The notes under the pieces were generated by a model. It ran no database searches. It was not told the DNA's origin and saw only the letters and a program-made list of their open reading frames with translations. 64,000 nt of DNA from an uncultured bacterium (GTDB taxonomy: Bacteria > Patescibacteriota > Saccharimonadia > UBA4664 > SCTI01). The stretch's first letter is position 1; each line of letters starts with the position of its first letter. This document shows, piece after piece, positions 18,385 through 32,607 of the stretch. The position numbers and the translations under genes are program-made. The stretch is taken from contig CAVRJJ010000002.1 of NCBI GenBank assembly GCA_963721685.1, positions 8,848 through 72,847 on the forward strand. Direction: 5' to 3'.

Positions 18385-21012
18385 TTATGCTGGTGGAGGT
18401 GCGTCCGATAGCTCAAGCTGGGGTTCTGACCCGCCTTCTCCAATTGCTTGCTCAAGCTTCGACTCGCCAATCAACGCGATGGAAGCTACCTTATCACCTT
18501 CCTTCAGGCGCATAATACGGACCCCTTGGGTGGCGCGGCCAATGAGAGAGACGGTTTTAACGGGAAGCCGGATAATCTGCCCACTGGAAGAAATAATAAC
18601 CAAGTCGTCATTACCGTTCTCCAGAGCACGCACATCAAGAGCTTTGCCGGTTTTAACGGTCACAACTCCAGCCTTTATGCCAACGCCACCGCGGGCGTGG
18701 GTTGAGAACTGGTCCACCGACGTGCGCTTGCCATAACCATTCTCCATAATTACCAGTAGTTTTGTTCCGGGTTCGACCACATCAACGCCCACTACCTCAT
18801 CACCCGAGCGCAACCGAATGCCGCGTACTCCCCTGGTTGCCCTCCCCATTGGCCGGGCATCCGACTCTTTAAAGCGAATGGCTTGGGCGAGCGCTGTGGA
18901 CATAATAATTTCATCATTTCCCGACGTTTGCTTAACCCAGCGCAATTCGTCGCCAGTATCAAGCTTAATGGCAATTAGACCATTGGCTCGGACGTTGGCA
19001 TAATCTGCAAGCGCGGTTTTCTTAACGGTGCCTTTTCGGGTTGCCATAAAAAGGTACTTACCGGCGGTGGCGGCATTAAAGGTATTAATGGAAGTAATCA
19101 CTTCATCTGGACCCAACTGAAGCAAGTTAACGATAGCCTGCCCCTTGGCAGTCCGCGAGGCAGCGGGAATCTCATAGACTTTTTGGCGAAACACCCGGCC
19201 CATGTTGGTAAAGAATAGGATGAAATCGTGGTTATGAGTTAGGACCAGGTGCTCAACCACGTCTTCTTCCTTGGTAGTCATGCCCATAATGCCTTTACCC
19301 CCGCGTCCCTGGGACTTATAGGTATTAGCGGGAATCCGCTTAATATAGTTGCCCTGGGTAAGGGTGATAATGACTTGCTCATTAGGCACCAGCTCTTCTT
19401 CACTGAACTTACCCAGCTCGGTCGCCACAATCTGGGTGCGGCGGAGATCGCCGTGCTTTTCCTTTAACTCGGTCAGCTCTTCCTTAATAATCCGTAGGAT
19501 TTCTTTCTCATCCCCCAGAATTTTCTCAAGCGCGGCTATAAGCTTCTTGAGTTCGGCCAGCTCATCTTCAATCTCTTGGCGCTCAAGCCCGGTTAAACGG
19601 CGCAGCTGCATTGCCAGGATGGCTTTAGCCTGGATAACCGTCAATTTAAACTGCTTAATCAAGTTGGCTTCAGCGATTTCACTGGTACGGCTGGCGCGAA
19701 TGGTTTTTATAACTTCATCAATATGGTCGAGCGCTATCTTCAAGCCTTCCAAAATATGTGCTCGGTCTTTGGCTTTACCAAGCTCAAATTCGGTTCGGCG
19801 CCGGACTACGATCTGGCGGTGCGTAATGAACTCTTTGAGCATCATTTCCAGGGTCATGACCCGCGGTTGGCGGCCCTGGTCGGTTAAGGCCAACATGTTT
19901 ACATGGAAGGCGCCCTGCATCGGTGTTAAGCGGTAAAGCTGGTTAAGGATTTTCTTGGGATAACTGTCGCGCTTGAGCTCAACCACAATCCGGATGCCGT
20001 TACGGTTACTTTCGTCGCGGAGGTCGCTAATGCCGGTAATACGTTTATCCTTGGCCAGTTCGGCAATCTTATCAACAAGGGTGGCTTTATTGACTTGGTA
20101 CGGAATTTGGGTAACCACGATCTGTTGATTACCTTTTTTATCCTCTTCAATCTCAGCCACGGCCCGGACCACAATTGAGCCTTTGCCGGTACCATAGGCG
20201 GCTTTAATTGATTCTGTACCGAACATGGTTCCCCCAGTGGGAAAATCCGGACCTTTAACGTGCGCCATTAATGCTTCAAGCGGAGCATCGGGGTTGTCTA
20301 TTATATGAATAATGCCGTCTACCAGTTCTCCCAGGTTATGAGGCGGAATATTGGTGGCCATTCCGACAGCAATGCCCATCTGTCCGTTTAGCAGCAAGTT
20401 GGGAATTTTAGCCGGCAGAACCGAAGGCTCTTTTAAGAAGCCGTCGAAGTTAGGTCGGAAATCTACGGTGTTTTTCTCGATATCAAATAACATTTCGCTG
20501 GCTATGCGAGTCATCCTGGCCTCGGTATAACGCATGGCGGCGGGCGGATCGCCGTCAATCGAGCCAAAGTTACCCTGCCCGTCAACCAACGGATAGCGCA
20601 TTGAGAACTCTTGAGCCATCCGCACCATGGCGTCATAAATAGCGGAGTCGCCATGGGGATGGTAGCCGCCCATAACCTCACCAATAACCGCGGCGCTTTT
20701 ACGGTATTTGGCGTTATGGCGGAGCCCCATGGTATTCATAACGTAGAGTATCCTGCGGTGGACCGGCTTTAAGCCGTCACGGACGTCGGGAAGCGCGCGG
20801 GCCACAATAACCGACATAGCATATTTGAGATAACTATCCTCCATTTCAAACTCAAGGCTTTGGTTCTCTATCTGTCCAGCGCCAATATGACGGGCTTTGG
20901 CGATCGGCATCAGCTCACCATCAAGCGGGCCAATAGTAGACTCCGACGGGTCGTCGGCAGGTTGCTCGGGCAGCTCTGGTGTTTCAGGAGTTTCCGGTTC
21001 TTCAGGATTCAT
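18385..21012 (-). CDS. gyrA: DNA gyrase subunit A
   Basis: 875 aa. The active-site Tyr region ([10 protein letters not shown]) and the QRDR-like region are present, with C-terminal GyrA-box beta-pinwheel repeats. It sits immediately downstream of gyrB on the same strand. Confidence 0.95.
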
Positions 21013-21032
21013 CTTAGCCTTGTCCCATCATC

Positions 21033-23117
21033 TTAAAAATCCAAATCATCATCGGAAACAACCGTAGCGTGGGTTTGGATAAAGTTTTTACGAAGCAGCA
21101 CTTCTTCGCCCATCAGCTTGTTGAAAATAGCATCGGCCTTTTCGGCGTCATCTATGCTTACCTGGAGCATAATACGATGCTCGGGGTTCATGGTGGTATC
21201 CCACAACTGGTCGGCGTTCATTTCGCCCAACCCTTTGTAGCGCTGGATGTTGGCCCCAGCCATTTTCAACCGACTGCGTTCTTCGTCGCTAATTGCCAGC
21301 TCTTCATCATCCAGGTCCGGCGTAGACGCTGAATCATTTGTTTGCTCAGAATCATCCCCCTGGTCGGCAGCGGCGGCCGCTTCTTCAGCCGCATCTGCCT
21401 TGGCTTTGGCCTTGTTGGCAGCCTTTTCTTCGATCAACTTATCAATAATGGCATCACGCTCCTCTTCAGTATAGGCGTAGGTCTTTTTACGTCCGGCCTG
21501 CACCAGGTAAAGGGGCGGTCGGGCGATATAAAGATGTCCCCCGCTAATAATTTCGGGCACATGGCGATAGAAAAAGGTAAGCAGTAAAGTACGGATATGG
21601 GCACCATCAACATCGGCATCGGTCATGATAATAATGTGGCCATAGCGTAATTTAGCAATCTCAAACTGGTCACCAATACCGGTGCCCATGGCAACAATCA
21701 GGTTTTTGATTTCATTATTACCCAACATCCTATCGAGACGGGCGCGTTCAACGTTGAGAATTTTACCACGCAGCGGCAAAATTGCCTGGAATTCACTATC
21801 GCGGCCGGCTTTAGCCGACCCGCCAGCGCTGTCGCCCTCAACAATATACAATTCACTACGATTAACATCTTTAGTACGGCAATCTGAAAGCTTGCTGGCC
21901 AAGGTAAACCCGTCAAGGGCTCCCTTGCGGATAACCGTATCGCGGGCGGCGCGGGCGGCCAGCCGGGCGCGGGCGCTTAAGGTGGCTTTTCCAATGATTT
22001 TGCGGGCCTCTTGGGGGTTTTCATCAAGATAATAGCTGAACCATTCATTCACCACCTGCTCCACCACACTACGGACTTCCGGGCTGCCCAGTTTGGCTTT
22101 GGTTTGGCCTTCAAACTGGGGATCGGGCAGCTTTACCGATATGACAGCGGTAACTCCTTCACGTACATCTTCGCCGGTTAGACTTTCCTCTTTTTCTTTA
22201 AGTAAGCCGTTTTTACGGGCATAATCATTAATGACGCGGGTAAGCGCGGACCTAAAGCCCGTTAAATGAGTCCCGCCCTCGGGGTTATGGATGTTATTGG
22301 CAAACGTACGTACATTCTCACTAAAGCTTTCGGTATACTGCAAGGCCATTTCCACCACCACATCCTTAACCTGCTTTTCCACGTAAAAGGGTGGTTGGTG
22401 AAGGATACTTTTATCCCGGTTAAGGTGCTCAACATAGCTACGAATTCCGCCTTCAAAATAGTAGCCGTAGCTTTCGCTGCTTGGCTCGTTTGAAGCTTTA
22501 ACGTGGATTCCCTTGGTAAGATAGGCCTGGTGGCGCAAATAATCGAGCACCGTTTGGTAATTAAACTGGATAGATTCAAAAATGGTGGCATCCGGCCAAA
22601 AACTAATAGTTGTGCCGGTCCGGTCGGTGGGACCCACCACCTTTGGCTCACCTTTGGGCTTTCCCGTGCCGTACTCTTGGATGTAGTGCTTGCCCTCGAG
22701 ATAGACGTCAACAATCACCTTAGTAGATAACGCGTTGACCACGCTGATACCTACCCCGTGCAGACCGCCGGAAACTTTATAGCCCGAGCCTTCACCGCCA
22801 AATTTTCCACCGGCGTGCAAGACCGTCATGACAGTCTCGAGTGTGCTTTTCCCGGTAGTCTTGTGCTTTTCAATGGGGATACCGCGGCCGTAGTCGTTAA
22901 CCTTCACACCCCCGTCAGCCAGCATCGTGACTTCAATAGTATTACCATGACCGGCCATAGCTTCATCGATAGAGTTATTGATTACTTCCCATATAAGATG
23001 GTGAAGGCCCTCAATACCGGTTCCACCGATATACATGCCGGGACGCTTGCGTACCGGATCAAGACCTTCAAGCACCTGGATTTGGTCGGCGCCGTATTTT
23101 TTCTGATCAACTGCCAT
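21033..23117 (-). CDS. gyrB: DNA gyrase subunit B
   Basis: 694 aa. The GHKL ATPase N-terminus (…GLHHLIWEVINNSIDEAMAG…GGLHGVGISVVNALS), the Toprim EGDSAGGS block and the PLRGKILNVE motif are present. Confidence 0.95.
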   Translation of the reverse strand: MAVDQKKYGADQIQVLEGLDPVRKRPGMYIGGTGIEGLHHLIWEVINNSIDEAMAGHGNTIEVTMLADGGVKVNDYGRGIPIEKHKTTGKSTLETVMTVLHAGGKFGGEGSGYKVSGGLHGVGISVVNALSTKVIVDVYLEGKHYIQEYGTGKPKGEPKVVGPTDRTGTTISFWPDATIFESIQFNYQTVLDYLRHQAYLTKGIHVKASNEPSSESYGYYFEGGIRSYVEHLNRDKSILHQPPFYVEKQVKDVVVEMALQYTESFSENVRTFANNIHNPEGGTHLTGFRSALTRVINDYARKNGLLKEKEESLTGEDVREGVTAVISVKLPDPQFEGQTKAKLGSPEVRSVVEQVVNEWFSYYLDENPQEARKIIGKATLSARARLAARAARDTVIRKGALDGFTLASKLSDCRTKDVNRSELYIVEGDSAGGSAKAGRDSEFQAILPLRGKILNVERARLDRMLGNNEIKNLIVAMGTGIGDQFEIAKLRYGHIIIMTDADVDGAHIRTLLLTFFYRHVPEIISGGHLYIARPPLYLVQAGRKKTYAYTEEERDAIIDKLIEEKAANKAKAKADAAEEAAAAADQGDDSEQTNDSASTPDLDDEELAISDEERSRLKMAGANIQRYKGLGEMNADQLWDTTMNPEHRIMLQVSIDDAEKADAIFNKLMGEEVLLRKNFIQTHATVVSDDDLDF

Positions 23118-23280: not shown

Positions 23281-24642
23281 ATGTTTCGTAATATTGTATC
23301 AAGCCTAGGGTTTAGTCCGGCATCAGGCGGGCAGCTAACATTTTACTGGCGGCGTCTTAAAGGTGAAAACCTTACGCGCCAATTGTCCATGGTAATGGCC
23401 GGGGCGCTAGTGTTTTTGCAGGTCGCGACGGTTATTGCTCCTCCCGACCCGGCCAGCGCCGCCGGCTCGGCTAACGATATCATTAGAGGCGGGATTGCCG
23501 GCAGCGGCCACCCCCAGGCAACTATGCTTGCCCATTATGACAAATACGCCGACATTAGGGCGCTATTCAACCGCTTTGGTATTTATCGGGTAGATATTGA
23601 AAACACCACCCACGGCACCTTAAACTCTAGCAATCGCGCCTTTATGTCACTTGGCCGTAATGCCCAGTTTAGCGCGGCCCAAGGCGAAAAACCGGTCCAC
23701 GGCCTTGATGGTAAGCTCTACTACGCGCGGCCGCTTTACTTGTGGGGAAATAATGTCACCTATCAAGTAATTGAGGGCAGGCGACGCGGTGACAACCGCT
23801 ACTTCGCCGTGATGTATGACTGCGGCAACTTGGTGCTAACCGATTTAACGCCAACAACCACACCTCCACCGCCTCCGCCTCCACAGCCACCGCCACCTCC
23901 TCCACCAATGCCGCCGCCACCGCCACCTCCTCCACCAATGCCGCCGCCACCTCCGCCTCCGCCAGAGCCGCCACCGCCACCTCCACCGCCACCACCTCCG
24001 CCTCCGCCAGAGCCGCCACCGCCACCTCCACCGCCACCGCCACCACCTGAAGGTACCCCTAATATTGAGCTGGCTAAAAGCGCCGTATTAATTACCGCGG
24101 CTGATGGCACCAAGAAGAATGGCAACGGCGCGACAGCCGCGGCCGGCGACACAATCGAGTACACGCTTACAACCAAAAACACCGGGAACGCCGCTCAAAA
24201 GGATTACGTAGTGGTTGAAAATATCCGCGACATTCTTGAGTATGCCGATGTAATTAGCCCGGGAGGCGCTACCCTTCAGGACGGAAGCTTAACCTGGCCA
24301 AAGACTACGATTAAGGACGGGGAAAGCGATGTTCGGACTTTCCAGGTTAAAGTTAAAAGTCCTATCCCTATCAATCCTATTTCCGTTTCCGATCCCCTGT
24401 CCTATGACTTAAAGATGAATAACGTGTACGGCAATGTCGTGGTGGTAAACCTTCAAGTGCCGCCTGAAAAGCAGATTGAAGTCGCCAGCGCGACCCTTCC
24501 CCAAACCGGAACCGGCACAACCACCTTTATTGTCTTCGTTCTGGTAAGCGCTATGGCTTACTTCTACTTCCGCAACCGTCAGTTAATGACTGAAGTAGCG
24601 ATGTTACGCAATGACCATCATGGACCGGGAGGAGGTGTTTAA
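23281..24642 (+). CDS. LPXTG-anchored surface protein: signal peptide, ~65-residue near-pure poly-proline spacer, DUF11-like beta-sandwich domain, LPQTG sorting signal
   Basis: - N-terminal signal/TM: MVMAGALVFLQVATVIAPP.
- Poly-proline tract (PPPPPPPQPPPPPPPMPPPPPPPPPMPPPPPPPPEPPPPPPPPPPPPPPEPPPPPPPPPPPPEGTP), encoded at 23860-24050.
- DUF11-like segment: AKSAVLITAADGTKKNGNGATAAAGDTIEYTLTTKNTGNA.
- The C-terminus reads LPQTG-TGTTTFIVFVLVSAMAYFYF-RNRQ (sortase motif, hydrophobic helix, basic tail). Confidence 0.7.
   Translation: MFRNIVSSLGFSPASGGQLTFYWRRLKGENLTRQLSMVMAGALVFLQVATVIAPPDPASAAGSANDIIRGGIAGSGHPQATMLAHYDKYADIRALFNRFGIYRVDIENTTHGTLNSSNRAFMSLGRNAQFSAAQGEKPVHGLDGKLYYARPLYLWGNNVTYQVIEGRRRGDNRYFAVMYDCGNLVLTDLTPTTTPPPPPPPQPPPPPPPMPPPPPPPPPMPPPPPPPPEPPPPPPPPPPPPPPEPPPPPPPPPPPPEGTPNIELAKSAVLITAADGTKKNGNGATAAAGDTIEYTLTTKNTGNAAQKDYVVVENIRDILEYADVISPGGATLQDGSLTWPKTTIKDGESDVRTFQVKVKSPIPINPISVSDPLSYDLKMNNVYGNVVVVNLQVPPEKQIEVASATLPQTGTGTTTFIVFVLVSAMAYFYFRNRQLMTEVAMLRNDHHGPGGGV
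23860..24050 (+). repeat. Imperfect tandem CCN-codon repeat encoding the poly-proline tract; contains two ~54-bp near-identical units
   Basis: …ccaccgccacctcctccaccaatgccgccg appears twice in tandem, and …cctccgccagagccgccaccgccacctccaccgccacc appears twice. This is a slippage-prone low-complexity coding repeat. Confidence 0.7.
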
Positions 24643-25188: not shown

Positions 25189-28100
25189 TTACCCCTGAAC
25201 TACATTCCCTTGATCATCAATATAAATTTCACCGGGCTTTAGCGCCGGTTGAGTTGCTTTAGCTTCCTCCTTAGGGGAAGCTTCCGTACTCTTGGCAGCC
25301 GCGGCCGATGGGCTTGCGACGGCAGGTGCCGCTGGTACTGAAGGCTTTTCCGCGGCTTTCGGCTGAGCGGGAGCGGGAGCAGCCGGATTCGGCGCCGGTA
25401 CAGCAGGCGCTGGGTCGGGTGTTTTCGCGGCTTCCGGGATTGGCTTGGACGGACTAGGAGGTGGAACGGCAACAGGAACTACGCTCGGTTCCGGTGTAGC
25501 TAAGGACGGTGACGCGGCTGGCAGAGCCGCTGGTGGAGCGACAGGAACCGGCATCGGTATAATAGGCGGCGCTGATAAGGTTACCGGAGCTACTAGTGGA
25601 GCTGGTGTTACCGGAGGAACCGCAGCAAGCGGTGCCGGCGCGGCAACACCAGCTTTGGCTTTAGCCGCGTCCAGTATTGCCTGGGCAGAGGCTTCATCGG
25701 CTACCGGCGGAACAGGCACTGGGGTAGGTGCTGTAGATTTGGCAGCGTCTATTATTGCCTGCGCGGCTGCTTCGTCATCTGCCAGCTCCTCTAAAACGCT
25801 TTTTTTCTCGTGTTTAGGCGGCTGCAGCACCAACTCATGGTGCCCGGCGTGCAGAGGATCATTGCCAAACTTTTCATCGGACTTAGGCACGGCCGCCGAA
25901 GCGTATGCCGAAGGGGGTTGGGCGGGTTCTTCGCTATGCTTATTAATGGTGGGGTTTTTAAAAGTGATACCTTTAGGCAGATCATTTGGCAGGTGTTCGA
26001 CAGGCAAAGGTGCAGGTGGAGATTCAGCAGCTGGCTCCTCCTCTACAGTTTCGGCTACAGCATTCGGGTCAATCGGATGAGGGGTGCTCGGCCGGTTCAG
26101 AACCCTGCCTTTATGGGTAGCTATCATCGACTTACCCTCGGGTGGTTTTACACCCTGCGGATCAGGAAGAACCGGCGGTACTTGCATCGGACTAACGGGT
26201 GAAGGCGCGGCAGCTGGGCTGGCTGCTGCCTGAACAGCAGGACCTACGGCCGGTTCCGCAACGGCAGGTGAGGTGGTTCTTGGTAGAGATACATTCTCGG
26301 GCGAAGGAGCAGATGGCTGGATAGTCGGCGGGGCGGGCAGAGTTGCCGGGGCTGATGGCTCGGTGGAGTTCACTATAGCGGGGACTGGCGACGATGGTGG
26401 AGCTACCAGGGCAGCGGGCTGTGGTTCTGTAGTTTGCACCGCAGCGATGACTGGGCTTGACGGAGGAGGCGCGGGTACCGGAGCAGGCTTCACTTCTGGA
26501 GGTGCGACAGGCTTTATCTCCACGGGAGGAGCCGGCTTTACTTCCGGAATAGGAGTTACCGCTACAGGTACGGAGTCCTGCGCTTGAGGTACCGCTGCCT
26601 TTGGCTCCGTCGGTTGAGCTAATTTTGGCTCTGGAGGAGGCGGAGGCTCTGCAACCGGCGCTTGCACCGGAGGCTTCGACGCCTCAACTTTCCCATCGGT
26701 TTCATGGGCTTCAATTCGTAATAAAGGCTTAGTTTGGGCTGGTTTGGTGGTGGGCGCGGAACTTGTAGATACGTCGCTTTTCTTGCCATCGGTTTCATGG
26801 GCTTCAATCCGCAGTGGCTCTTCTGGTTTCACAGAAGCAGTAGCTTTAGGAACCGGCTTACTGCCGGCAGTTGCTGTGGCAGCCACCGATTCCGGCAGGG
26901 CTACTGTTTTGGGTGGCTCTGAAGCTAAAACCATCCCTTCAGTCTCGTGAGCTTCAATCAGCAATGCCGGGTCTTTCGTTTTTGGCGCGGCGGGTAGCGT
27001 TACTGCAACCACTGGTGCTGGCTTTTCCTCCGCAGCGGGAAGCGGAATTGTCGTGTCGGACTGAGATTGTACGGCAGGCACTTTAGATAAGACATTTACT
27101 GCTGGAGATACGGGAGCTGAAACCGGCGGCGCGTTAGATACCACTGGTGCTGGCGGCGTTATCACCGGAGCAACAGGCGCCGGTTCAGAAGCGGCAGGAT
27201 CTGCCGGTGCGAGCGCGACCGCGGGAGACGGGGCGGGCGCGGCGGGCGGAGTTGGTTGCGGGCTGGCTGCCCGAAGCTGGCTTAACGATAAGCCGTCAGG
27301 GGCGGTGGGCGCGGCGGGCGGTGGAGCTACTGCCGGAGCTGGGCTGCTTGGCTGCGGAGACTGAAGCACACTAGCGGAAGGCTCCGGCAGGCTTGCGCTC
27401 GCCGCGGACGGAGGTGGTAGGACCGTCGTGGCGGCACTAACGGTCGCGGGAACCGGTGGTGCAACGGGCACAGCAGGCGGTTGTGCGACCGGTGTCGGAG
27501 CGGCAATAGGCGGCGGTGTTCCCTGCAGCCGGGCAAAAATATCGGCTTCCACCGTGGCCCTGGGCACCCCAAACTTGGCCGCGCTCAGTTGCTTGATCGC
27601 CAATCCCATCTCCGCATGCGCTTGGCCCAAAGATGGCAACATGGTAATGCTAAAGGGTTGGCTGGGCAGCCCGCCTATCAATAACTTCATTACCGCGTTA
27701 TAGTTCGGCATATTTACAAGGTCCCGCTGGTCAAAGATCGGCTCAAATTGCTTTACAAGGAATTCCGCGTCTTCAGGACCGGTGCGATAACTAAGCATCG
27801 TTCCCACATTCCCAAAAACGGCGTCTCGGATCTCGTCGCTCAACTGACTGATATACTGGTTGGCTACAATTAAGTTAAGCCGGTACTTGCGGGCCTCACT
27901 TAAAATACTGGCAAAGCTGTCGGTGCTAAAATTTTGGAACTCATCAACATACAGGCTGAAATCCTGGCGCTGGTCTTCGGGAATATTAGAGCGGCTCATC
28001 GCCGCGGCCTGGAACTTAATGACAAATATCATCCCAAGGAGTTGCGCGTTCATCTCCCCTACCAATCCTTTGCCAAGGTTAACAATCAGGATTTTCTTCT

Positions 28101-29943
28101 TATCCATAATATCGCGGATATTAAAACCAGAGTGGGTTTGGCCAATAATATTGCGCATCATTTCGTTGCTTAAAAACGCGCCGAACTTACTGACAAACCA
28201 GCCAAGCATCTCCGACTTGTGGTAATCACTGGTTTGGGCCATCTCTTTAGTCCAGAACTCAATCACCGTGGGGTCATTCAAATACTTAAACTTATTCTTA
28301 AGATAAGCCGTGTCGGTAAACACCTTAGGAATCTCAACAAAACTAGCGCCGTTGGGGTCAGACATCAAAGTAAGGGCCGCGTTCCGGAACCAGTGCTCAA
28401 AACGGGGTCCGATAATTCCGGTCTTGCCAGGATCATAGAGTTTATAAAGCATGTTAATCGATTCCTGGACCAAAAAATCCTTTTGCTCGGGTGAGCTGTA
28501 TTCAAATAGGTTTAATCCTAACGGATGATCCATATCCCCCGGGTTGAAGTACACCACGTCTTCAGCCCGCTCCTTGGGAACCATACTAATAAGCTTTTCA
28601 GCGGTATCGCCATGGGGATCAATAAACGCAAAACCGTTGCCGGCCAGCATATCCTGGACGGCAAGGTTTTCTAAGATGGTAGATTTACCGGTACCGGTTT
28701 GCCCCACAATATAGGTGTGGCGCCGCCGGTCTTCCGGCCCGAGGCGGACTTCCTTTTTTACACCGCGATAAAAGTTGTACCCAAATAACAGCCCGGATTG
28801 GGACATGCTAACCGGCCCGTCGACTTGCTTGGACTTCTGGCGCTCTACCTGGGTGCTTGGCGTAAATTGGGCGTCCGGCAAATGGAATAAGGTCGCGATC
28901 TCAACACTGTTTAAGATATTGGTGGATAGCTCCGGCGGGAAAAAACGGAAAATAAATGCCGTTACCAGCCCCTGCATGTCCCGTCCTTCAACGAATTGGA
29001 AGCCGTTTGAACCGGGAGCCTCAAACAATGAAAAGGCAGTCGTAATATTGCGCAGTAAAATTTGTGAGCGGTCGTAGGAGGGAGATGAGGCAAGTATGCG
29101 AATAAGTACCTCATATCCCGGATGCTTGGTCTTTTCTTCAATCCGCTGCATGGTATCTTCTTCGAGCTTACTTAACTCAAAGCTTTTAGCGTCCTGGCGC
29201 CACTCTTCCGAAGTCTTAACCGCGCCCTTGGCAATATCTGCTACACCAAAGCCCAAGCCACCGCGCCGGGTGTGGCGAGTATTATCAACCAGTTTAATCG
29301 AGTTTTTTGTCCACCCTTCACCGGCCGGACGCAGCATGATTTGAATGGCCGCGCCATCCCCCAGTTGAAGTTTGGACAACGCGTTAAGCAGACCCACCAT
29401 AGGATCCCGCTCCATCTGGTCTAGTGTTCCAATTGGATAAGCGGCCTGATGCTTTAGGACCAACTCACCGCCCACCGTCCCCGTTAAATGGCCTTGGGGG
29501 TTAAATATATTGTGGTCTTCCACCTCTTCAAGGCGGGCACCCGGATAAGCGGTAACAATGGCCTGTTCGACCACGCTAACCATAGCCACCGGAACAGCCG
29601 CGAAGTAATGAATGAGTCCGTTGGACGCGATAATTTCAAATGCTATATGACGCTGCCCGTAAAAATTGCTTTTAAACCCGGACTGGGCGGTACCTGAAAT
29701 AAGGTCGTAAAGCACCTGCGCTTGAGAAATCTTTTCCCGCATAACATCGCGCACGTCGCGGTTGCCGCTATTTTCGGTATCGTCACTGGGGGGCGGCAGA
29801 TGAATTAACAGCGGAACCATCTTCAATCCGCGCTCTACCCCTTTTGCCCGGCGCAAAACCCGGCGATAAGCCAAGAACGCAATCGCGGCAAGGACAATCG
29901 CAAATACCACGAAAAGCAGTACGAGCAGTACAATCCCGTTCAT
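25189..29943 (-). CDS. Membrane-anchored P-loop ATPase of the FtsK/HerA/TrwB superfamily (type IV coupling protein-like) with an ~830-aa Pro/Ala-rich intrinsically disordered C-terminal extension
   Basis: - N-terminal TM: MNGIVLLVLLFVVFAIVLAAIAFLAY.
- Walker A YIVGQTGTGKST, followed ~25 aa later by FAFIDPHGD, as in TrwB/TraD GATGTGKS…VIVDPNGD.
- Walker B-like LYVDEFQNF.
- From ~residue 760 to 1584 the sequence is P/A/V/S/T-rich low complexity, with three copies of (L)LRIEAHETDGK. Confidence 0.7.
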   Translation of the reverse strand: MNGIVLLVLLFVVFAIVLAAIAFLAYRRVLRRAKGVERGLKMVPLLIHLPPPSDDTENSGNRDVRDVMREKISQAQVLYDLISGTAQSGFKSNFYGQRHIAFEIIASNGLIHYFAAVPVAMVSVVEQAIVTAYPGARLEEVEDHNIFNPQGHLTGTVGGELVLKHQAAYPIGTLDQMERDPMVGLLNALSKLQLGDGAAIQIMLRPAGEGWTKNSIKLVDNTRHTRRGGLGFGVADIAKGAVKTSEEWRQDAKSFELSKLEEDTMQRIEEKTKHPGYEVLIRILASSPSYDRSQILLRNITTAFSLFEAPGSNGFQFVEGRDMQGLVTAFIFRFFPPELSTNILNSVEIATLFHLPDAQFTPSTQVERQKSKQVDGPVSMSQSGLLFGYNFYRGVKKEVRLGPEDRRRHTYIVGQTGTGKSTILENLAVQDMLAGNGFAFIDPHGDTAEKLISMVPKERAEDVVYFNPGDMDHPLGLNLFEYSSPEQKDFLVQESINMLYKLYDPGKTGIIGPRFEHWFRNAALTLMSDPNGASFVEIPKVFTDTAYLKNKFKYLNDPTVIEFWTKEMAQTSDYHKSEMLGWFVSKFGAFLSNEMMRNIIGQTHSGFNIRDIMDKKKILIVNLGKGLVGEMNAQLLGMIFVIKFQAAAMSRSNIPEDQRQDFSLYVDEFQNFSTDSFASILSEARKYRLNLIVANQYISQLSDEIRDAVFGNVGTMLSYRTGPEDAEFLVKQFEPIFDQRDLVNMPNYNAVMKLLIGGLPSQPFSITMLPSLGQAHAEMGLAIKQLSAAKFGVPRATVEADIFARLQGTPPPIAAPTPVAQPPAVPVAPPVPATVSAATTVLPPPSAASASLPEPSASVLQSPQPSSPAPAVAPPPAAPTAPDGLSLSQLRAASPQPTPPAAPAPSPAVALAPADPAASEPAPVAPVITPPAPVVSNAPPVSAPVSPAVNVLSKVPAVQSQSDTTIPLPAAEEKPAPVVAVTLPAAPKTKDPALLIEAHETEGMVLASEPPKTVALPESVAATATAGSKPVPKATASVKPEEPLRIEAHETDGKKSDVSTSSAPTTKPAQTKPLLRIEAHETDGKVEASKPPVQAPVAEPPPPPEPKLAQPTEPKAAVPQAQDSVPVAVTPIPEVKPAPPVEIKPVAPPEVKPAPVPAPPPSSPVIAAVQTTEPQPAALVAPPSSPVPAIVNSTEPSAPATLPAPPTIQPSAPSPENVSLPRTTSPAVAEPAVGPAVQAAASPAAAPSPVSPMQVPPVLPDPQGVKPPEGKSMIATHKGRVLNRPSTPHPIDPNAVAETVEEEPAAESPPAPLPVEHLPNDLPKGITFKNPTINKHSEEPAQPPSAYASAAVPKSDEKFGNDPLHAGHHELVLQPPKHEKKSVLEELADDEAAAQAIIDAAKSTAPTPVPVPPVADEASAQAILDAAKAKAGVAAPAPLAAVPPVTPAPLVAPVTLSAPPIIPMPVPVAPPAALPAASPSLATPEPSVVPVAVPPPSPSKPIPEAAKTPDPAPAVPAPNPAAPAPAQPKAAEKPSVPAAPAVASPSAAAAKSTEASPKEEAKATQPALKPGEIYIDDQGNVVQG

Positions 29944-29998
29944 GGCTATGCATCACCTTTATTCATACTCGTGCCCACCCCATCCATGCTAATACCTG

Positions 29999-30430
29999 TT
30001 AAGCATCCGGCTTTTTAACGTCATGGCCGTAACGCTTTTTGAGATAATCAATCTGCAGCGCTTCCACCGCTTCTTCTTGAACATAAGGGTCGTCTTTGGT
30101 TTGCTCAATTATTTTATTCGCCTGGTCCACCCACTCTTTTTCAATAACATCGGTATCACCGGCAACCGTCGGGTTAGGATCGGTGGGGGTAGCGGTCGGA
30201 GGGGTTGCTGTGGGAATGGGGCTCCCCGGTAGCTGTTGGGCAGGTACGTTAGGAATTTGGGGAATTTGGATTGGCTGCCCTGCTGGCGCGCCTTGTGACA
30301 CGTTGGGAGCGGCTTCCGGAGCAGCCGGCGCCGGCTGCTGTTCAACTGCTGGCAGGTTGGCCTGTTCAGGAGAGGATGGTTGGTTTGGGCTGGGCTGAGT
30401 ATTGGCGTTTTGATTGGGTGGCATGAGCAT
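29999..30430 (-). CDS. Pro/Gln-rich small hypothetical protein with a conserved acidic C-terminal ~45 aa
   Basis: 143 aa. The N-terminal 100 aa are P/Q/A/N low complexity and the C-terminus is structured (DVIEKEWVDQANKIIEQTKDDPYVQEEAVEALQIDYLKKRYGHDV). It lies between the PH-domain protein and the ATPase on the same strand, with 53-nt and 126-nt gaps. Confidence 0.4.
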   Translation of the reverse strand: MLMPPNQNANTQPSPNQPSSPEQANLPAVEQQPAPAAPEAAPNVSQGAPAGQPIQIPQIPNVPAQQLPGSPIPTATPPTATPTDPNPTVAGDTDVIEKEWVDQANKIIEQTKDDPYVQEEAVEALQIDYLKKRYGHDVKKPDA

Positions 30431-30556
30431 TCCTTTCTAGCATTTATTATACCACTTATGGTTAATGTCTGCCAGATTCAAATCGCATAATTTCACGTAA
30501 ATTAAAAAGAGCAAAAAATAACAGCTTTTTAGTGTGATAATTACATCAAAGTTCGC

Positions 30557-31069
30557 TTATTTCGCGCGTTCATGGGCGTCAAGAATTACCTCGGATAAAT
30601 TTTGCGGATCCGGCGCCCAGGTAAATACCATATTTTTTTCTTCTCCGGATGTTTTTGCCGTGATATCGCCGTAATTAAATAAGGTGCTCAATAATCCGTT
30701 CTGGGTTGCCGTAACATCTTCTAATTTTTCAAGGTTGAACTGCGACAACCGCCGACTGATTAAACTCCCCTGGCCTACCAGGTACAGGGTTTTATCGGTT
30801 AAAACCAACCCGTTTCCTAAATAGATTTTTAGATTGGCAATTACCAAGATGACAGCCAAAGCCAATAAAGCAACGGCCGCCAGCGCCACCATTGATGGCG
30901 GACCAATATTTTGAATTTGATCCGGGAAACGTCCAAGAAGGTAAAAAATAAGAATCCCGATCATACCAACAATCAACGCGCTAAAGAGTGGGAATACCAA
31001 ACTTAAAGGATGGCGATGAACTGCCACCTCTATCGTTTCATCGGGATCAATACCGGCTGTTAAACTCAT
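30557..31069 (-). CDS. Bacterial PH-domain membrane protein (bPH_2 / YdbT-like, DUF304)
   Basis: Two N-terminal TM helices (LSLVFPLFSALIVGMIGILIFYLL, MVALAAVALLALAVILVIANL) followed by a ~90-aa PH-like domain (…LTDKTLYLVGQGSLISRRLSQFNLEKLEDVTATQNGLLSTLFNYGDITAKTSG…). Confidence 0.55.
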   Translation of the reverse strand: MSLTAGIDPDETIEVAVHRHPLSLVFPLFSALIVGMIGILIFYLLGRFPDQIQNIGPPSMVALAAVALLALAVILVIANLKIYLGNGLVLTDKTLYLVGQGSLISRRLSQFNLEKLEDVTATQNGLLSTLFNYGDITAKTSGEEKNMVFTWAPDPQNLSEVILDAHERAK

Positions 31070-31128
31070 TCGCGCGCGCCTCGCTTATAGGCACTATCCT
31101 AGCATAAGCCGGGTACTACCTGGAATTG

Positions 31129-32607
31129 CTAATAATGGACCCACACCGGGGTGCCAACATCACCCCAGCCGTAAATAAAGGCCGCGGTAGCTTCAGGAAG
31201 GTTCACGCACCCATGAGAGCCGTTGTATTTATAATCCTGTCCGCCAAATACTCCGCCCCGCCAACTCGCGTCATGCATCCCGTAATTGCCGTGAAACGGC
31301 ATCCAATACTTTACGAAAACGTTATAATCATAGCCAATGGCGTACCCGTTTAAATTGCGGTTGGTTTGTTTAGCTTGTATAGAAAACAACCCGGTAACGG
31401 TAGCGTACCCAGCGGCGCTTGCCCCGCTGGTTAGCGGTGCCTCATGGATAACCTGGTGGTTTTCGTATACCCACAGGCGCTGGGAGCTGAGGTTAATTTC
31501 AATATACTTACCATAATCCAAGCTGATACTGCGGTTGTATTCGGTTTGAAAGGGTACTTTTTTGGTTGGGGCGGCCGCGACCACCGGCTGCTTGGCCTCA
31601 ACCGCGGCAGCTATGACCGCTGCCAGCGCGTCTTGATCAAGCTGCAGTCCGTCCTGGCCCACCTGAGTTTCTTGCGAATTACCGTTTTGAACATTAATTT
31701 TACGATTCACGGGGTTCACATTTATTTGCAGGGCCAGCGACTGTAAATAGCTTTTTATCCCGTCCTTACTCAGGGTCGGAATAAGGCCGGGGGCCTCGCT
31801 TTGCGGACTTTTCTGGTAAGTTATCCATCCGCTTTTTTGAGCTGGCGTAGGATTAAATACTTTGTTTTCGTAAGAAATGGTTACCGGTATAGCCAATAAC
31901 TGTTTGGTCTGCGCGATTGCCGGTTCAACATCGGGCACCCGAATCCGGGCGTGCTGAACCGAGGGCTCAAGCTTTAGGGTTGTGATAGAAAAACTCGCTA
32001 GCCCCTTTTTAATAGCGTTGGCCGCGGCTTGGCCGCCTAAAGCCCGTCCGTCCACATCCGGCTGGACAACCGGCTCGCCTTCTTTCACCACAATTGAGGC
32101 ATCAACCGGCACTAGTCCGCTAGCCCCTACCATCTTATCTATGAATGCTGTTTCAACTTTTGGATTAAGCTTAAGGGTGTAGGCCAATTCCTGGCTGTTA
32201 CGCGCGGCCAAAAATTGGAGCGGAACAAAAACCTGATTTCTTCCCACCGCCAAGGCGTGGTCTAGGGTCGCGTCGATGTTATAGGAAGCGCCAATGTCAC
32301 CGGCGCGGATCTTATACGCAGTTGAACCAACCGCTACATTAAGCGTATGGTTGGCGACGGGGCGTTCCAGAACCGCCTTAGCTTCCTGCCGCGTCATTGA
32401 GCCAATCTCCATACCGGCAACGGTTACCCCTGGCATTATCCGGCCGGCCATAAAGGCATTCAACCCAATCTGGGCGGCGAACCCGAGAAAGCCCAACACG
32501 CATGACCCAATAACCAACAGACGCTGCCACCTTTTTAGGGCGTCAGACGGCACGCTGGACGGGTAAGTCTCAATTACCTGACTACCAGGTCCGACGGCTA
32601 CCAGCAT
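31129..32607 (-). CDS. L,D-transpeptidase (YkuD/ErfK catalytic domain) with a large N-terminal extracytoplasmic region, signal-anchored
   Basis: The C-terminal YkuD domain has a canonical active site (HGNYGMHDASWRGGVFGGQDYKYNGSHGCVNLPEATAAFIYGW). An N-terminal signal-anchor helix is present (LLVIGSCVLGFLGFAAQIGLNAF). The middle ~300 aa may be VanW/PG-binding-like. Confidence 0.75.
   Translation of the reverse strand: MLVAVGPGSQVIETYPSSVPSDALKRWQRLLVIGSCVLGFLGFAAQIGLNAFMAGRIMPGVTVAGMEIGSMTRQEAKAVLERPVANHTLNVAVGSTAYKIRAGDIGASYNIDATLDHALAVGRNQVFVPLQFLAARNSQELAYTLKLNPKVETAFIDKMVGASGLVPVDASIVVKEGEPVVQPDVDGRALGGQAAANAIKKGLASFSITTLKLEPSVQHARIRVPDVEPAIAQTKQLLAIPVTISYENKVFNPTPAQKSGWITYQKSPQSEAPGLIPTLSKDGIKSYLQSLALQINVNPVNRKINVQNGNSQETQVGQDGLQLDQDALAAVIAAAVEAKQPVVAAAPTKKVPFQTEYNRSISLDYGKYIEINLSSQRLWVYENHQVIHEAPLTSGASAAGYATVTGLFSIQAKQTNRNLNGYAIGYDYNVFVKYWMPFHGNYGMHDASWRGGVFGGQDYKYNGSHGCVNLPEATAAFIYGWGDVGTPVWVHY

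Follow-up and report, generated by a model that had tools for sequence, protein, structure and literature searches.

What does a coupling-protein-like membrane ATPase do on a Patescibacterial chromosome, away from any T4SS genes? The question was raised by a 64-kb stretch of Saccharibacteria DNA (hereafter the window), in which a preliminary description had placed such an ATPase, with a very long disordered tail, in a cell-wall operon. It suggested a translocase coupled to wall remodelling, a remnant of a conjugative or secretion system, or a scaffold whose tail spans the wall. "Orphan" T4CPs have already been published for Patescibacteria, with only 148 of 5,713 homologs located near virB4 (PMC12102498).

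Domain layout and family of the ATPase

The 1584-aa protein corresponded to a real open reading frame, and its single N-terminal TM helix was confirmed both in the sequence and in the AF2 model, where aa 2–40 formed one helix (Table 1). The alpha/beta N-domain behind it was family-specific. It had no match in the Pfam set searched, a set that does not contain PF26449, the domain carried by homologs of this region. A search with the N-domain gave 1,339 cluster representatives at E ≤ 1e-3, and in most of the 150 representatives listed the match lay near the N-terminus (start at ~residue 35–90). The proteins with an N-domain match were fused (~820–860 aa), split (~400–440 aa), or tailed (1000–2000 aa).

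The ATPase domain contained an all-helical insert at aa 485–614. The Walker A, IDPHGD (aa 441–446), and Walker B motifs were invariant across 60 homologs, including G414, Q415, T416, G417, G419, and K420 of Walker A and D667 and E668 of Walker B. Elsewhere in the window, just one Walker A motif was convincing, that of a 180-aa kinase-like protein. With both Walker motifs intact and the Pfam T4SS-DNA_transf score above its cutoff, the assignment to TraD/TrwB/VirD4-like membrane ATPases was supported. Among 45 family members, TrwB_AAD_bind was matched by 31, T4SS-DNA_transf by 25, and TraG-D_C by 20. In the NCBIfam scan, all T4CP models, including those for TraD, scored far under their cutoffs for the ATPase.

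The top structural match of the ATPase was VirB4, not a T4CP. The protein might be a VirB4-like assembly ATPase in function rather than a substrate-coupling protein, with its N-domain and C-terminal ATPase mirroring VirB4. The best Foldseek matches were full-length TrwK/VirB4 (~890 aligned columns, E 3e-16), the NCBIfam VirB4 model was collinear (residues 387–737 onto positions 424–716 of 792), and the 807-aa core size and two-domain layout resemble VirB4. However, the Foldseek TM-score was only ~0.3, and hhalign gave a probability of 0.3% between the N-domain profile and an actinobacterial VirB4 profile. None of the 45 members matched AAA_10, TraC_F_IV, or CagE_TrbE_VirB, and one had a weak P-loop_TraG match. 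Moreover, a separate VirB4 lies beside the homolog in Embleya and Haloferax, and a distinct VirB4-like gene, SEML1_0008, is present in Southlakia epibionticum (Se). A VirB4-like function is therefore improbable.

Table 1 Features of the ATPase locus, in window coordinates.
Feature	Position	Strand	Basis or remark
gyrA	18385–21012	−	NCBIfam above cutoff; 32/78 loci
gyrB	21033–23117	−	NCBIfam above cutoff; 38/78 loci
DUF11 surface protein, polyproline linker, LPQTG sortase signal	23281–24642	+	Pfam DUF11; sequence; 33/78 loci
181-aa protein, charged N-terminal half, C-terminal TM helices	24642–25187	+	Convergent neighbour; 27/78 loci
T4CP-like ATPase gene, 1584 aa	25189–29943	−	Stop codon 25189–25191; ORF list and translation
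C-terminal motif LKPGEIYIDDQGNVVQG, aa 1568–1584	25192–25242	−	Conserved; predicted beta-hairpin
Pro/Ala/Val/Ser-rich tail, 777 aa, aa 808–1584	25192–27522	−	Predicted disordered and cytoplasmic
GKSMIATHK, aa 1270–1278	26110–26136	−	Short tail motif
L[LR]IEAHET[ED]G, three copies, aa 994–1003, 1044–1053, 1075–1084	26692–26964	−	Short tail motif
ATPase domain, VirD4/VirB4/HerA clade, aa 386–807	27523–28788	−	
Walker B SLYVDE, aa 663–668	27940–27957	−	Sequence
Walker A GQTGTGKS, aa 414–421	28681–28704	−	Sequence
N-domain, ~350 aa, alpha/beta, aa 36–385	28789–29838	−	Family-specific; AF2 pLDDT mostly 80–92
Single N-terminal TM helix, aa 4–26, then RRVLRRAK	29866–29934	−	Sequence; AF2
Small partner gene, 143 aa	29999–30430	−	P/Q-rich N-terminal half, conserved C-terminal ~55 aa
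Promoter-like site CTGGCA-18-TATAAT, TG extension	30446–30475	−	10/12 consensus matches; upstream of small gene

A fast-evolving tail with conserved short motifs

The composition of the tail (Pro 24%, Ala 20%, Val 10%, Ser 8%) agreed with the low-complexity region described before, whose length was 777 aa instead of ~830 aa. By a crude composition measure, no low-complexity stretch in the window was longer, consistent with the earlier claim that it is the longest disordered region there. In the AF2 model of homolog P0024 the tail had pLDDT <50. Identity to the nearest full-length relative was 33% in the tail versus 83% in the core, and tail length in close relatives ranged from 353 to 1149 aa. 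DNA tandem repeats were not found in the tail-coding sequence.

The tail evolves fast yet keeps short motifs. IEAH was present as a 4-mer in 18 of 84 tails (expectation from shuffling, 0.2), and P0001–P0023 contained 23 listed copies of the motif built around it. MIAT occurred in 15 of the 84 tails (0 expected), with the full GK[TS]MIATH context in 13 homolog tails. The C-terminal motif fell within the final 40 aa in 103 of 115 homologs (0.025 expected after shuffling); elsewhere, 25,436 tail residues yielded a single match. In the P0024 model it formed two strands at pLDDT ~75, compared with ~30 for the tail.

Judging from the sequence, the tail must be cytoplasmic and cannot span the wall, because the single N-terminal TM helix has positive residues on its C-terminal side, the ATPase needs cytoplasmic ATP, and no later TM helix follows. 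This predicted topology runs against the earlier idea of a scaffold with a wall-spanning tail.

Conserved genomic context

More than 7,690 homologs of the ATPase were found, and over 7,000 occur in Saccharibacteria, Peregrinibacteria, and Gracilibacteria. The top 120 were 61–92% identical over aa 1–807, and core identity was 55–93% across the Saccharibacteria-type loci (L001–L055). The conserved block ran from the small P/Q-rich protein through the ATPase and the TM and DUF11/LPQTG proteins on the opposite strand to gyrB and gyrA. The gyrB and gyrA pair (18385–23117) anchored the conserved synteny. Since this block recurs across Saccharibacteria and the catalytic residues are invariant, the ATPase gene is a core gene and not a mobile one: a chromosomal, vertically inherited T4CP-family copy found throughout the ultrasmall Patescibacteria, and no oddity of a single genome.

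The small gene had a homolog in 55 of 78 loci, and in 53 of these 55 it directly preceded the ATPase gene in the same orientation, the two being −1 to 56 nt apart. Its product had neither a TM helix nor a signal peptide, and its conserved C-terminal pattern was D.D.IEKEWV..A......T..DP...DY..KRY. The position of the 181-aa protein is probably conserved through synteny rather than function. The LPQTG protein, described before as divergent next door, is convergent with the ATPase, the 181-aa protein gene lies between them, and it is gyrB from which it diverges.

A cell-wall operon would imply a translocase tied to peptidoglycan remodelling or a scaffold with a wall-crossing tail. An L,D-transpeptidase (YkuD + PG_binding_4) does lie upstream of the ATPase on the same strand, a PG_binding_1 protein and an M23 peptidase adjoin the homolog in Peregrinibacteria, and the Embleya cluster has an NlpC/P60 hydrolase. 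However, the transpeptidase accompanied the ATPase in only 10 of 78 loci, and the PH-like gene did so in one, which marks them as lineage-specific, in contrast to the conserved context of gyrB/gyrA and the small cytoplasmic partner. A four-gene operon including both, as first proposed, is not supported, the small gene being the only one of the three other members that is a conserved neighbour, and the bPH_2 match of the putative membrane protein (30557–31069) scored 15.4 bits (E 0.023), below the cutoff of 22. In the 126-nt gap between that gene and the small gene sits the strongest promoter-like site of the region, which parts the transpeptidase and PH-like genes from the small gene/ATPase pair; such sites were no more numerous in the region than in shuffled sequence, and this one is suggestive only. 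The tail, moreover, is predicted to lie in the cytoplasm. Wall hydrolases are ordinary parts of monoderm T4SS clusters, and their presence therefore does not make the ATPase a cell-wall gene. The cell-wall reading is thus already disfavoured and very unlikely.

Counterpart and paralog in Southlakia epibionticum

The family, fold, domain layout, conservation, synteny, and motifs of the ATPase come from this analysis; the essentiality of the syntenic small gene/ATPase pair of Se is taken from the literature. SEML1_0141–0146 have the same gene order, strands, and sizes as the window block: a small gene (420 bp), the ATPase, ~580-bp and DUF11 genes on the opposite strand, gyrB, and gyrA (PMC10633639, Tables S1/S2). 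From synteny, gene sizes, and annotations, rather than from alignment, we infer that SEML1_0142 is the ortholog of the window ATPase. It encodes a 1019-aa protein whose tail is ~200 aa long, compared with 777 aa in the window, has a P-loop domain at ~residues 381–800, and was flagged as a core and Patescibacteria-enriched family (PMC10633639). In Tn-seq it was scored ES/ES/ES, with insertions falling from 114 in input DNA to 11, and SEML1_0141, the small gene counterpart, was scored GD/ES/ES (9 to 0), while SEML1_0143 and SEML1_0144, the counterparts of the 181-aa and DUF11 proteins, were non-essential (PMC10633639). The main text of that study mentions neither SEML1_0141 nor SEML1_0142, and it reports the Se T4SS as essential, without a recognised coupling protein (PMC10633639).

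These data also bear on whether the gene is what remains of an integrated conjugative element in decay. Pfam and NCBIfam scans of the 64-kb window detected no VirB4, relaxase, or integrase, confirming the earlier statement that neither these nor other T4SS genes lie nearby, and several other window genes look broken. Against decay, the 4.7-kb ORF is intact to its conserved C-terminal motif, the core is conserved (55–93%) with invariant catalytic residues, the chromosomal position is fixed, and the syntenic Se counterpart is essential by Tn-seq. Conservation and essentiality refute this reading for practical purposes.

A second Se gene, SEML1_0293, represents a paralog type with the same N-domain and ATPase family (tblastn best-segment identity 34–46%, matches spanning aa ~97–802 in most loci). 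This type lacks the long tail and the small partner gene, carries a short C-terminal motif (...LKPGQVIKMD), lies in a different fixed context next to a Sigma70_r4 + HARE-HTH gene, and in L069 and L077 is encoded by two separate genes. SEML1_0293 was scored NE/NE/NE. A Se t4cp homolog, not named, has been noted as non-essential and possibly exapted (PMC12102498), which fits SEML1_0293.

Exaptation could also apply to the window gene, as a T4CP-derived translocase that no longer works with a T4SS and now serves an essential housekeeping process, such as membrane DNA handling, uptake of host-derived nucleic acid via another channel, or division/budding. Published work has raised exaptation for the seldom virB4-linked Patescibacterial homologs (PMC12102498). 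The genes conserved beside the ATPase encode DNA enzymes, namely gyrB/gyrA in Saccharibacteria and dnaE, a pif1-like helicase, and ruvB in Peregrinibacteria, and the window lacks a detectable relaxase. The second paralog is non-essential, and the copies have therefore diverged in role. However, gyrBA adjacency is weak functional evidence because gene order is generally conserved in tiny genomes. Se already has an essential canonical FtsK (SEML1_0096), and comEC is dispensable. With an essential T4SS that has no recognised coupling protein, the window-type gene is the simplest candidate for that part, and we regard exaptation as rather unlikely.

Proposed role as a coupling ATPase

The best reading, to which we give a probability of about 0.5, is a T4CP-family ATPase of Saccharibacteria whose tail and small partner recruit cargo. 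Given the essentiality of its counterpart in Se, the only species tested, the window ATPase is a candidate for the so far unrecognised coupling motor of the Patescibacterial secretion machine. The protein would be anchored in the cytoplasmic membrane by its one TM helix, with the remainder in the cytoplasm, and its TrwB/VirB4-like ATPase domain probably forms a ring, like its structural relatives. ATP would drive the delivery of a protein or nucleic acid substrate to a membrane channel. A channel made of six single TM helices alone is unlikely; most plausibly this role would fall to the Patescibacterial T4SS, encoded at another place in the genome. The disordered tail may serve as a flexible recruiting tether, in which the three IEAHETDG copies, GKSMIATHK, and the C-terminal beta-hairpin motif would serve to bind partners or cargo, or else to dock onto the motor itself, comparable to the tails of F TraD and DotL. 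The small cytoplasmic protein, presumed to be co-transcribed in the coupling reading, is a likely adaptor.

Several observations were counted against a coupling role: the window holds no T4SS gene, the NCBIfam T4CP scores are low, the top structural match is VirB4, and the TM helix is single. Among the solved T4CP chains matched (TrwB, DotL, and Cag-beta), moreover, none contained an equivalent of the N-domain, and their alignments cover the ATPase part only. The essentiality of the Se counterpart could reflect a T4SS-independent role, and the published non-essential, possibly exapted Se t4cp homolog was counted on the same side (PMC12102498).

Comparison with known systems

Compared with VirB4 (TrwK of R388 and the T. 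pseudethanolicus VirB4 CTD), the window ATPase lacks VirB4 Pfam matches, its N-domain profile is unrelated by hhalign, and its relatives in Embleya and Haloferax coexist with a separate VirB4. Canonical T4CPs such as TrwB and VirD4 usually have two TM helices, whereas the window ATPase has one. It also differs from TrwB (R388), TraD (F), and VirD4 by the extra ~350-aa N-domain and by the lack of relaxosome genes in the window. In DotL (IcmO), the coupling protein of the Legionella Dot/Icm system, a diderm effector-secretion system, the C-terminal tail binds adaptor proteins and is ordered when adaptor-bound, whereas the window tail is a low-complexity Pro/Ala region without known adaptors. In F TraD, TraM is bound by the last residues of a flexible C-terminal tail, and the window tail is many times longer than the 38-residue conserved C-terminal region of that protein, Ala680–Phe717 (PMC7555446). 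The Peregrinibacteria/Peribacteria-type homologs lack the long tail; their final residues, ...DDPFGF, are acidic and aromatic and in this character resemble the C-terminus of F TraD (PMC7555446).

In the conjugation clusters of monoderms outside Patescibacteria, the two-domain homolog lies next to a relaxase-like gene and VirB4. Residues 78–770 of the window ATPase were collinear with an 812-aa protein of the Embleya plasmid NZ_CP108778 (WP_331738717; 28% identity, E 2e-71), which has the same N-domain and ATPase layout and T4CP-type Pfam matches. The gene order there is TrbL-like, PrgI, XF1762 family protein, VirB4, the homolog, Replic_Relax, and NlpC/P60. A Bacillus amyloliquefaciens plasmid homolog (WP_248872787) is paired with a Replic_Relax gene, and the Haloferax volcanii pHV1 homolog (WP_013035712) with a VirB4-like "transfer complex protein". 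These monoderm and archaeal T4CPs thus lie on plasmids beside VirB4 and a Replic_Relax relaxase-like gene, whereas the window gene is chromosomal, has neither in the window, and differs in its long disordered tail and its small partner gene.

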